DNA of 53,480 nucleotides, from the IMG/VR virus record IMGVR_UViG_648028025_000004; one strand, given 5' to 3'. The DNA comes from a virus (lineage: Duplodnaviria; Heunggongvirae; Uroviricota; Caudoviricetes). Shown piece after piece: positions 9,001-12,000 of the stretch (the first letter of the stretch is position 1; every line of letters begins with the position of its first letter). A program made the position numbers.

Positions 9001-12000
9001 TTTATTAGTAGGTTATTTTTGTTGCGAATAATTCGCCTTTTACGATGGCTGTTATGATATTTTTAGCAACATCTTCTGATGCGCCAACCTTGATAAGGTC
9101 AGCAAGTATTTTGTTATTTACTTCTTTCCGGTGAGCTTTATCCTTTGCTCTACGCTCTTCTTCGTCCTTGATTCTTTTTTCTTCTGCTATTCTGGCTTGC
9201 TCTTTTGCTTCAGCCTCGCGCAGGATTCGTTCTGCCTCCTCCTGTGCTTTACGGCGTTCTGCTTCAATTGCCGCATGCTTTTCTCTTTCAGCTCGTTCTG
9301 CTGCCTCTTTTGCTTCGCGCTGTGCTCGTTGCTCGGCTTCAATGCGTTCACGCTCTGCACGTTCCTCTGCGGCCTTAGCTTCTGCTTCTCGCCTTGCTGC
9401 TGCTTCAATTTCGGCTTTTGCCTTTGCTTCGGCTTCAGCTCTGGCTTTCTCTTCAGCTTCTCTTTTTAAGCGTTCTTCATGCTCTCGCTTTTCCTGCTCC
9501 GCTTTGAGTCTTGCCTCTTCTCTTTGGCGGTCAAATTCGCGATCCATCAAAATCGCTATTTCATGGTCAGACTCAATTTGCTTTGCGAGAGCTTCAGCTG
9601 CTGCCTTAGCTTCTTCTTCGGCTTTAATCCGCGCCTGTTCTTCCTCATAATCAGTAAGAGGCTGGCGCGCCTTGGCTTTCAGTTCATCAAGGCGATCGCG
9701 CACTGTCTTGCGGTTAGCATCAATTAGCTTTGGAATTTCCTTCAGTTCAGCAACAAGGTCTTTGCCAAGACCATCGAGATATGTTTTCGTCTGCGCAACT
9801 TTATACGCCAGATAAGCGATCTCCTTTCTGCCCTTTGCCGTTGTGATATCAGGCACAAAGGACATAACTTCACGTTCAACCTTTTGAAGAATTTCTTCAA
9901 TCTGGTCGGCAGACTAAATTACAGTCATTGCATTTGCTTTTTCAATAACAACTAAATCTGTTACTTCACTCATATATCCTCCGTCAAAAAAATTGCCCTC
10001 ACACTGGAGGGCAAAGAAGATTTCCAATAATCAGAACAAGTCGGCTCCTGTTTAGTTACGAGCGACATTGCTCCGTGTATTCACTCGTTGGAATGAATAC
10101 ACAGTGCAGTGTTTATTCGTATGCCTGTCTTTTAACCACATCAGGCTCGGTGGTTCTCGTGTACCCCTACAGCGAGAAATCGGATAAACTCTATTCACCC
10201 CTACAGAGAGAATGATGGAGATTCACCGATGAGTAACTGGTGGCAGGAACTATTACGTTTCTTCCTGCGTGGTCTTACGCTACAACAGTTAATTCATATG
10301 CTTATTATTTTAATTGCCTTGATAATAATCACCCCAGCATCAATTAAAGAGTGGGTAGATATAAGGAACCCCGAAATACTTCCAGATCACTGGATGTATT
10401 ACGCAATGCTTTTGTGTATCAGTTATGTTCTGAACAGGGGGATGGAGTGTTGATCGCGCAGAAACAGATTTACTTATCAACCTGTCAACGCTTACCCAGC
10501 GCGGTCTGGCAAAGATGATTGGCTGTCATGAATCGAAGATAAGCAGAACGGACTGGAGATTTATTGCTTCGGTCTTGTGTGCTTTCGGAATGGCATCAGA
10601 CATCAGTCCGATTAGCAGAGCTTTTAAGTATGCGCTTGATGGACTCACCAATAAAAAACGCCCGGTGTGCAAGACCGAGCGTTCTGAACAAATCCAGATG
10701 GAATTCTGAGGGAATTACTGGATCAATCCACAGGAGTCATTATGACAAATACAGCAAAAATACTCAACTTCGGCAGAGGTAACTTTGCCGAACAGGAGCG
10801 TAATGTGGCAGATCTCGATGATGGTTACGCCAGACTATCAAATATGCTGCTTGAGGCCTATTCAGGCGCAGATCTGACCAAGCGACAGTTTAAAGTGCTG
10901 CTTGCCATTCTGCGTAAAACCTATGGGTGGAATAAACCAATGGACAGAATCACCGATTCTCAACTTAGCGAGATTACAAAGTTACCTGTCAAACGGTGCA
11001 ATGAAGCCAAGTTAGAACTCGTCAGAATGAATATTATCAAGCAGCAAGGCGGCATGTTTGGACCAAATAAAAACATCTCAGAATGGTGCATCCCTCAAAA
11101 CGAGGGAGGTTCCCCTAAAATGAGGGACATCCCTCAAAACAGGGGGACACAAAAGACACTATTACAAAAGAAAAAAGAAAAGATTATTCGTCCGAGAATT
11201 CTGGCGAATCCTCTGACCAGCCAGAAAACGATCTTTCTGTGGTTAAACCGGATGCTGCAATTCAGAGCGGCAGCAAGTGGGGAACAGCAGAAGACCTGAC
11301 CGCCGCAGAGTGGATGTTTGACATGGTGAAGACCATCGCACCATCAGCCAGAAAACCGAATTTTGCAGGGTGGGCTAACGATATCCGCCTGATGCGTGAA
11401 CGTGACGGACGTAACCACCGCGATATGTGTGTGCTTTTCCGCTGGGCCTGCCAGGACAACTTCTGGTCCGGTAACGTGCTGAGTCCGGCCAAACTCCGCG
11501 ACAAGTGGACCCAGCTCGAAATCAACCGTAACAAGCAACAGGCAGCCGTGACAGCCAGCAAACCAAAACTCGACCTGACAAACACAGACTGGATTTACGG
11601 GGTGGATCTATGAAAAACATCGCCGCACAGATGGTTAACTTTGACCGTGAGCAGATGCGTCGGATCGCCAACAACATGCCGGAACAGTACGACGAAAAGC
11701 CTCAGGTACAGCAGGTAGCGCAGATCATCAACGGTGTGTTCAGCCAGTTACTGGCAACTTTCCCGGCGAGCCTGGCTAACCGTGACCAGAACGAACTGAA
11801 CGAAATCCGCCGCCAGTGGGTTCTGGCTTTCCGGGAAAACGGGATCACCACAATGGAACAGGTTAACGCAGGAATGCGCGTAGCCCGTCGGCAGAATCGA
11901 CCATTTCTGCCATCACCCGGGCAGTTTGTTGCATGGTGCCGGGAAGAAGCATCCGTTATCGCCGGACTGCCAAACGTCAGCGAGCTGGTTGATATGGTTT

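Follow-up and report, generated by a model that had tools for sequence, protein, structure and literature searches.

The window, the whole 53,480-nucleotide stretch analysed here, belongs to a lambdoid prophage of EHEC O26 (E. coli) integrated beside ybhC. The leftward early operon, whose first surviving gene starts at 9973, is separated from the replication gene O by 768 bp, somewhat less than the roughly 880 bp first estimated. The following features are found in this gap, on either side of it and, for the two Rha-type genes, further along the window:

9005 to 9973, minus strand: first surviving gene of the leftward early operon, in the position of lambda ea10; a 'TolA'-like pseudogene in RefSeq
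9993 to 10014, minus strand: leftward intrinsic terminator, an 8-bp stem followed by a run of seven T (terminator scan; fold -13.2 kcal/mol)
10065 to 10112, minus strand: imperfect inverted repeat with 22-nt arms (10065-10086 and 10091-10112) that are 82% complementary
10122 to 10228, plus strand: sieB 5' region with a 16-nt direct repeat (lambda comparison)
10229 to 10447, plus strand: sieB', 72-73 codons from the start of a superinfection exclusion gene of 179 codons (Pfam SieB)
10448 to 10449, no strand: deletion junction 'TG' (alignment of the intact, IS-bearing and window alleles)
10450 to 10709, plus strand: 'cII, codons 14-99 and stop of a 99-codon phage 21-type cII (Pfam Phage_CII)
10650 to 10767, minus strand: oop antisense unit, apparently intact, antisense to the cII 3' end (promoter and terminator scan)
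10742 to 11613, plus strand: replication gene O, frameshifted (alignment; 'frameshifted' in RefSeq)
15685 to 16407: first Rha-type gene, with Phage_pRha and ANT/KilAC domains
24647 to 25264: second Rha-type gene, with Phage_pRha and ORF11CD3 domains

The terminator, the inverted repeat and the 16-nt direct repeat belong to the native intergenic sequence of lambda-type phages; they are not scars, because all are identical in an immunity-intact relative of this prophage (see below). The odd features of the gap are, in other words, ordinary lambda intergenic elements. Positions 9987-10118 match lambda 33925-34056 at 99.2% identity and the relative at 100%. The terminator had been correctly noticed but placed at 9984-10012, slightly away from its actual stem. 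Likewise, a repeat does exist where a palindrome with 9-bp arms had been described at 10087-10114, although it is the longer, imperfect structure given above. It corresponds to lambda 34003-34050 (99% identity) and, as a leftward transcript, is predicted to fold into a strong hairpin (-24.9 kcal/mol, z = -5.6). The direct repeat, ACCCCTACAG[C/A]GAGAA, lies exactly where it was first reported, at 10163-10178 and 10197-10212. Both ACCCCTACAG cores are also present in lambda, where the region immediately upstream of sieB (34396-34480) is 94% identical to window 10122-10206; our literature search found no earlier description of this repeat. At the other end of the gap, the oop unit comprises a predicted pO-like promoter, TTGAGT-17-CATAAT, at 10767-10739 on the minus strand, and a terminator hairpin at 10685-10655 with 12 pairs and a T-run. 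The segment 10648-10732 folds on the minus strand at -29.1 kcal/mol (z = -3.1), and oopRNA is annotated at the same position in the phage 21 record AJ237660. Searched against Rfam with a cutoff of E <= 0.1, positions 8500-12000 gave no match to a structured RNA family, the oop unit included. The pO-like site was the sole match in a promoter scan of 9700-10900, a match count no higher than in shuffled sequence; no plus-strand promoter was predicted in that interval.

The genes in the gap and on either side of it are damaged. The 74-amino-acid hydrophobic ORF originally thought to be of unknown origin does exist (10229-10453, plus strand), but its origin is clear: it consists of the first 72 codons of sieB followed by one foreign codon (Cys) and a TGA at 10451-10453. 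It matches Pfam SieB (PF14163) with E = 2.6e-8 over profile positions 2-48 of 147, is identical to the N-terminus of the intact 179-residue SieB of the relative, and falls well short of that protein's length. Immediately downstream, the cII remnant matches Pfam Phage_CII (PF05269) with E = 6.8e-33 over profile positions 10-91 of 91. Its frame is open from 10434 to 10709, closed upstream by a TGA at 10431-10433, and the first in-frame ATG (10515) is codon 36. The start codon, the ribosome-binding site and the first 38 nt, i.e., codons 1-13, are missing. Native cII encodes 99 residues both in the relative and in phage 21, so the ORF is not complete for its family and the loss of the cII N-terminus reported in the original prediction is borne out. 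The remnant is 100% identical to the relative, and the cII-O segment is 97.5% identical to phage 21. RefSeq already flags both genes as partial pseudogenes, sieB as 'missing C-terminus' and cII as 'missing N-terminus'. The O frameshift is due to the loss of 67 bp between ori iterons (about 11129-11144), which leaves three iterons in place of the six found in the relative. The TolA-like pseudogene carries an in-frame TAG at 9914-9916; since the immunity-intact relative is annotated with this stop too, it predates the loss described next.

This relative is a near-identical prophage, also at ybhC, in E. coli O103 RM8385 (NZ_CP028112.1; loci L004 and L008). The two prophages share the integrase, the excisionase and the leftward operon, then P, ren, the nin genes, the KilAC and Rha proteins, Q, lysis and tail genes and nleH, with identical protein accessions. 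Both have cif, the TolA-like internal stop and an ISEc22 that replaces the head genes. In contrast to the window, the O103 prophage has undamaged sieB (179 aa), cII (99 aa) and O (six iterons) genes, along with N, two small ORFs, cI and cro. Alignment places 3,080 bp of additional DNA in it between window positions 10448 and 10450, which supplies the deletion endpoints that the original prediction had proposed to locate by such a comparison. Flank identity is 99.98-100% on both sides; in separate segments, window 8578-10448 matches L004 4879-6749 (100%) and 10448-11144 matches L004 9830-10527 (99.86%), the cII remnant being identical from L004 9830 on. The interval 9866-10741 is therefore a deletion scar. 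T10448 can be assigned to either side of the deletion.

The 3,080-bp segment encodes the C-terminus of sieB, N (Pfam N_peptide, 8e-32), the two small ORFs, a LexA-family cI with a Peptidase_S24 domain (234 aa, wholly within the segment), a 77-residue product in the cro position and the cII start (38 nt). The equivalent part of phage 21, ahead of cII, contains pL/OL, nutL, OR, nutR, tR1 and pRE. What makes a functional lambdoid immunity region is absent from the window, namely a cI gene combining a helix-turn-helix and an S24 peptidase between the pL/pR operators, and cro and N with nutL/nutR. The first reading of the region as a collapsed immunity region devoid of cI, cro and N thus holds, as does the statement that no repressor-sized ORF remains: SieB and Phage_CII were the only Pfam matches among the ten longest six-frame stop-to-stop segments. 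The absence of ral/orf28 is a different matter. The intact O103 relative lacks them too, so that this reflects natural mosaicism.

Two Rha-type antirepressor genes had also been reported, and supposed to be stranded without their cognate repressor. Both exist, the second starting at 24647 rather than 24716, but the idea that they are stranded is not supported: the O103 relative, whose immunity region is intact, encodes the same two proteins (WP_001003989.1 and WP_000881326.1), one in its nin region and the other downstream of its lysis genes. Both belong to the normal gene set of this phage type.

Other O26 genomes carry informative alleles of the junction. About 21 complete O26 genomes (20-21 by junction matches: 20 one-piece matches to the left junction, 21 to the right) bear a 1,310-bp IS3-family element exactly at this position. 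We call it IS629-like provisionally, RefSeq naming its transposase simply 'IS3 family'. In E2865 (NZ_AP018808.1; locus L002) and about 20 other complete genomes the junction reads ...gggatggag-[TGAACCGCCCCGG...CCGGGGCGGTTCA]-gcgtgatgttgatcgc. This allele breaks on the left at exactly the base where the window does, has the 67-bp O/ori deletion in common with it and is 100% identical to it in the flanks. Unlike the window, the IS-bridged allele, which is that of most affected O26 strains, retains, in addition to the element, 6 bp of authentic cII (GCGTGA; L004 9824-9829) on its right flank; the intact 108-residue CII annotated in E2865 is in fact a hybrid ORF beginning within the IS. The triplets that flank the element are gag and gcg, i.e., there is no target-site duplication. 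Side by side, the intact allele reads ggag/tttatat ... gcgtga/tgttgatc, the IS-bearing relatives ggag-[IS]-gcgtgatgttgatc and the window ggagtgttgatc. The left break thus lies at the IS terminus, the right break 6 bp beyond the element, and the join falls at a TG microhomology, both of whose bases could be the left end of the IS (TGAACC...) or cII (...GATGTT).

The window scar occurs at 100% identity in nine complete genomes. Strain 98E11 has yet another junction, gggggatg/atgttgatc, a deletion between two copies of GATG that flank the same IS. This scar, at a 4-bp microhomology, is a second and independent one. The IS600 at 7316-8577 was considered as a second character for a four-gamete test of recurrent excision and was dropped; the copy in strain 6629 sits 20 bp away from that position, which makes the homology of the IS600 insertions uncertain. 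Separately, strain 12689 equals the window except for one extra IS in the latter, at 14007-15317.

These observations led us to propose, with good confidence, that the scar arose in two steps in a lambdoid prophage that is now grounded, by an IS-associated deletion and then by imprecise excision of the IS. Both steps are shown by the comparison of alleles. In the first, the 1,310-bp element came to stand in an O26 ancestor in place of about 3,075 bp, which reached from codon 73 of sieB to codon 11 of cII. The sieB C-terminus, N with nutL, pL/OL, the two small genes in the rex position and cI were lost together with OR/pR/pRM, cro, nutR/tR1, pRE and the cII start. Because the IS has no target-site duplication, the event was an IS-associated deletion, either an adjacent deletion or recombination between two IS copies, rather than a simple insertion. 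None of the genomes searched carries the precursor of this step, an IS at either breakpoint with the interior intact. In the second step, the sub-lineage of the window lost the IS along with the 6 adjacent bp of cII (GCGTGA), and rejoining at the 2-bp TG microhomology fused sieB' out of frame to 'cII. The inferred mechanism is that the transposase cut at the IS ends and the gap was then sealed by microhomology-mediated end joining of the type promoted by the EHEC IS-excision enhancer, IEE. The IS-free allele cannot be the ancestor of the IS-bearing one, since the latter retains 6 bp of cII that the window lacks. The direction of the second step is accordingly read from these 6 bp and from the parsimony of a common left breakpoint, not from strain phylogeny.

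A simpler account is that a single illegitimate recombination took the intact allele directly to the window junction, the IS of the relatives having arrived separately. Set against the O103 allele alone, the window indeed shows a clean 3,080-bp deletion with a 1-bp overlap, as a spontaneous deletion would look. However, the IS-bearing alleles match the left breakpoint to the base while their right breakpoint is 6 bp off. Had an IS inserted into the window junction, the 6 bp of genuine cII could not have reappeared, and a target-site duplication of 3 bp, which is not present, would be expected. Two independent deletions ending 0 and 6 bp apart in a 3-kb interval are very unlikely, and we regard this account as improbable.

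It has also to be considered that both alleles descend separately from a precursor with a simple IS insertion at sieB codon 73, one by an adjacent deletion and the other by excision with loss of the 3-kb flank. The left breakpoint would then be common by descent, and a study of IEE (PMC9943667) reports IEE-dependent excision with loss of neighbouring DNA that can exceed 40 kb. The right endpoints, however, would fall within 6 bp of each other only by chance, and none of the matching genomes shows a simple insertion at this position, the left and right junctions giving 20 and 21 matches. The only simple IS insertion found in sieB, the 07_3636-type allele, in which the immunity region is intact, was rejected as a precursor: its site differs, being 181 bp further in, it is flanked by a CTT target-site duplication and its IS copy differs at 28 of 1,309 positions. 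A separate origin of this kind seems improbable.

Mis-assembly is invited by the repeated IS copies of IS-rich EHEC genomes, and a collapsed IS copy could in principle create an IS-free junction. We consider such an artefact very improbable, as the identical junction is present in nine independent complete genomes and the collapse of an IS would not also delete 6 bp of unique flanking sequence. Finally, several open frames of 20-60 codons on both strands might be taken for a native compact immunity module with a tiny or unrecognised repressor/Cro pair, but the alignment refutes this: over its whole length the region matches, at 100%, known features that in the relative flank a normal cI, cro and N module, leaving no unexplained DNA for such a pair. 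SieB and CII, the sole domains detected, are moreover both truncated relative to their full-length forms.

Under the two-step deletion model, the region is a case of common prophage decay, with no novel form of regulation. Without repressor and operators, the prophage would confer no immunity and would not respond to SOS induction. The int-xis-erf-kil-cIII and O-P-nin-Q operons most likely lack native promoters, because pL, pR, N and the nut sites all lie within the deletion. It had been asked whether early transcription is constitutive; the gene content suggests that the opposite is probably true, with read-through from a sieB promoter as a conjecture. The O/ori region and the head genes are damaged as well, and the prophage should be unable to switch, replicate or excise by itself. 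The scar would explain why the nleH/cif effector prophage of O26 is not inducible and confers no immunity, while nleH and cif may represent cargo still useful to the host. The junction alleles could serve as lineage markers in O26 typing. Beyond such bookkeeping the significance is slight. Two further ideas are highly speculative. First, the predicted oop RNA might act in trans and lower the CII of co-resident or superinfecting Stx phages, which is conceivable because the oop unit is apparently intact and the targeted cII 3' end is at least 97% identical to that of other lambdoid phages; if so, it would bias Stx phages toward lysis and toxin release. Second, and separately, the series of intact, IS-bridged, TG and GATG alleles might amount to a direct field record of microhomology-mediated IS excision of the IEE type.

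The closest mechanistic parallel is the IEE-promoted excision of IS629 and other IS3-family elements in EHEC (Kusumoto et al. 2011, cited in PMC9943667; Calvo et al. 2023, PMC9943667). According to the latter, IEE has a microhomology-mediated end-joining activity and is present in O26:H11; any iee gene of the present genome would lie outside the window. As there, an IS3-family element was lost here from an EHEC chromosome, one breakpoint lies at the IS terminus, a few flanking nucleotides are missing and the ends are joined at a short microhomology, with a second, independent scar that uses 4 bp. Unlike in that system, the microhomology of the window scar is 2 bp, below the homology of at least 4 bp that IEE end joining is stated to need in vitro, so that a role of IEE at this locus is put forward as a possibility. 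Our literature search returned general papers on IEE and no prior description of this scar.

Compared with the early regions of lambda and phage 21, the window keeps the order (ea10 position)-terminator-hairpin-sieB ... cII-oop-O-P-ren, but lacks everything between mid-sieB and codon 14 of cII. Cryptic lambdoid prophages of E. coli, such as Rac, DLP12 and Qin of K-12 and the defective Sp prophages of O157 Sakai, have been immobilised by deletions and IS insertions while useful cargo was kept. The present prophage would be a natural example of such stepwise domestication by IS3-family elements, with recurrent IS loss that leaves microhomology scars. Unlike in those cases, this single locus offers every stage as a natural allele, from intact through IS-bridged to the two IS-free scars, TG and GATG.

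The window is a lambda-like prophage adjoining ybhC in enterohaemorrhagic E. coli O26. A 1.3-kb query centred on 9866-10741 has full-length matches in ten complete genomes, at 100% identity in nine (O26 RM10386 and strain 12689, for example), and the prophage of strain 12689 plus one additional IS (14007-15317) gives the entire window. For the matching genomes, RefSeq records at these coordinates a SieB 'missing C-terminus' and a CII 'missing N-terminus', along with a replication gene marked as frameshifted and a 'TolA'-like gene interrupted by a stop. The features that the original prediction listed between the leftward early operon and O are present in the sequence:

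9993-10014, leftward: intrinsic terminator (terminator scan; fold -13.2 kcal/mol)
10065-10086 / 10091-10112: inverted repeat with 22-nt arms (fold -24.9 kcal/mol, z = -5.6)
10163-10178 and 10197-10212: 16-nt direct repeat, exactly where predicted
10229-10453: 74-aa ORF (Pfam SieB 2.6e-8, profile 2-48/147)
from 10434, first ATG at 10515: cII-like frame, open only from there (Phage_CII 6.8e-33, profile 10-91/91)

The palindrome exists, with arms larger than had been described, and the ORF said to be of unknown origin is the surviving 5' part of sieB (sieB'). The region holds no repressor-sized ORF, as had been claimed: among the ten longest six-frame segments, Pfam searches hit SieB and Phage_CII only.

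Judged by sequence, the terminator, hairpin and repeats are native to the sieB/tL2 neighbourhood of lambda-type phages and are not scars. Window 9987-10118, with the terminator and hairpin, is 99.2% identical to lambda 33925-34056, and 10122-10206, which takes in the first repeat copy, matches 34396-34480, directly upstream of lambda sieB, at 94%; lambda has both ACCCCTACAG cores too. The hairpin (10065-10112, minus-strand transcript) is conserved and very stable; the leftward transcript reaches it about 45 nt before the terminator. It matches lambda 34003-34050, which lies between ea10 and ral, at 99% identity. In an O103 relative with intact immunity, the whole of window 9975-10245 is identical. 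Lambda ral/orf28 is missing from the window, but since the intact relative also lacks it, this absence is mosaicism, not decay.

That relative, the prophage of O103 RM8385 at the same site, has the same integrase, excisionase, leftward operon (including its internal stop), P and ren. Window 8578-10448 aligns with its positions 4879-6749 at 100%, and window 10448-11144 with 9830-10527 at 99.86%. Between the two flanks the relative carries 3,080 bp missing from the window, with the junction at 10448-10449. This segment contains:

the remainder of SieB, 107 codons of a 179-aa protein
N, 90 aa (Pfam N_peptide 8e-32; PHROG N-like)
two small ORFs occupying the rex position
cI, 234 aa, LexA-family (Peptidase_S24; PHROG repressor)
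a cro-position gene, 77 aa (weak PHROG repressor match)
the first 38 nt of the 99-aa cII

The collapse of the immunity region is thus confirmed, its main interpretation is supported, and the predicted loss of the cII N-terminus is real, no start codon being left. Comparison with an intact prophage, proposed for locating the endpoints, has defined them exactly; sieB' and a two-step origin through an IS3-family element are further gains. In the annotated genome of phage 21, which shares 97.5% identity with the window across cII-O, nutR, tR1 and pRE lie just before and within the first cII codons, and OR, cI, OL/pL, nutL and N lie further left. By homology, the deletion took the antitermination system and both early promoters as well as the entire genetic switch.

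The origin of the junction can be traced through its alleles, counted in 5,426 complete E. coli genomes:

uninterrupted sieB breakpoint: 80 genomes
IS-bridged junction: 20-21 genomes
TG scar of the window: 9 genomes
GATG variant (98E11): 1 genome

Most affected O26 genomes, such as E2865, carry a 1,310-bp IS3-family element exactly at the junction (...gggatggag-[TGAACCGCCCCGG...CCGGGGCGGTTCA]-gcgtgatgttgatcgc...). The window reads ...gggatggag-tg-ttgatcgc..., and intact cII reads ...cagcgtgatgttgatcgc... at the same point. The left breakpoint is the same base in both alleles, but the IS-bearing one retains 6 bp of genuine cII (GCGTGA, 9824-9829 of the O103 prophage) that the window lacks. Because an IS inserting into the window's junction could not recreate these 6 bp, it is the window that has the derived allele. 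The E2865 IS is flanked by gag and gcg, without a target-site duplication, and therefore marks an IS-associated deletion, not a simple insertion. The IS and the 6 bp were then lost and the ends rejoined at TG, the first two bases of the IS, also found in cII. A second, independent IS-free junction in 98E11 (gggggatg/atgttgatc) is a deletion between two GATG flanking the same IS; hence this IS copy has been lost on at least two occasions, both at a short microhomology.

Both of these other alleles carry cII-containing ORFs. In E2865 (locus L002, 10000-10326), one starting in the right IS end reads into cII; its product (WP_000638163.1, 108 aa) has been annotated as a complete CII family regulator, and the ORF may be an IS-driven hybrid. 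In 98E11 (locus L010, 321-399; ORF 325-618), the 4-bp GATG scar brings out-of-frame sieB sequence into frame with cII, and RefSeq lists an intact 97-aa CII regulator.

In eight further genomes of the 07_3636 type (locus L009, 4742-6051), sieB contains a simple insertion of a different IS3-family copy and the immunity region is intact. This insertion was rejected as a precursor: it lies 181 bp further into sieB, has a CTT target-site duplication and differs from the junction IS at 28 of 1,309 positions. It is an independent event, so sieB has been struck by an IS more than once.

As cI and the operators are gone, neither immunity nor SOS induction would be expected, and the loss of pL, pR, N and the nut sites would leave both early operons without a native promoter. 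The prophage is more likely to be silent than constitutively expressed. Since sieB' terminates out of frame (10451-10453) and the truncated cII has no start codon, a functional product is expected from neither. The oop antisense unit, which lies to the right of the junction, seems to be intact (promoter/terminator scan; fold z = -3.1):

10767-10739: pO-like promoter
10685-10655: terminator

The element is damaged in other places as well. A 67-bp deletion between ATCCCTCAAAAC iteron repeats (11060-11240, junction about 11129-11144) leaves three ori iterons, versus six in the O103 relative and four in lambda, and shifts the frame of gene O (10742-11613). The same deletion is present in the IS-bridged O26 alleles, consistent with common descent. 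There are also two insertions:

7316-8577: IS600, between erf and a small ORF upstream of kil
14007-15317: IS629-like element interrupting a nin-region ORF, absent from strain 12689

The compared portion of the latter (14006-15000) is 100% identical to the E2865 junction IS. The erf/TolA-like region is an IS hotspot varying from strain to strain. Strains 6629 and RM8426 differ by 20 bp in the position of the IS600 near erf, 6629 lacks the small ORF next to it, and RM8426 has another IS629-like copy within the TolA-like gene. An in-frame TAG (9914-9916) splits this 322-codon, Glu/Ala/Lys-rich gene (9005-9973, minus strand), which occupies the ea10 position; the O103 relative has the TAG too, whereas in phiSTEC801-Stx1a the homologue is annotated as one uninterrupted CDS of the same length.

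Positions for the next three regions were transferred from locus L007 by +1316. ISEc22 (IS66-family, about 30220-33174) has a truncated S49 head protease on one side and a truncated tail protein U on the other, with the capsid genes missing; the O103 relative has the identical arrangement, so capsid-building ability was lost before immunity. At about 17238-19577, a 72-bp antiterminator gene remnant, an oppositely oriented lpxR (lipid A deacylase) moron and a complete Q follow one another in what looks like a Q-region replacement. The T3SS effector genes nleH and cif are intact at the right prophage end (about 45775-47707), followed by tail-fibre debris and ISCro1. Both predicted Rha-type genes exist, one within the nin region, the other past the lysis cassette, but nothing suggests orphaned antirepressors: the immunity-intact O103 prophage has identical proteins.

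The case is one of ordinary prophage decay by a known type of mechanism, and public annotation already marks both sieB and cII as partial pseudogenes. According to one report (PMC9943667), the IS-excision enhancer IEE occurs in O26:H11, enhances the transposase-dependent excision of IS3-family elements, IS629 among them, and has microhomology-mediated end-joining activity. It is plausible that IEE was involved here. The window's scar has 2 bp of microhomology, against the at least 4 bp required in vitro. IEE excision in EHEC is described as removing an IS with a few flanking bases and joining the ends at a microhomology, as we infer for the window.
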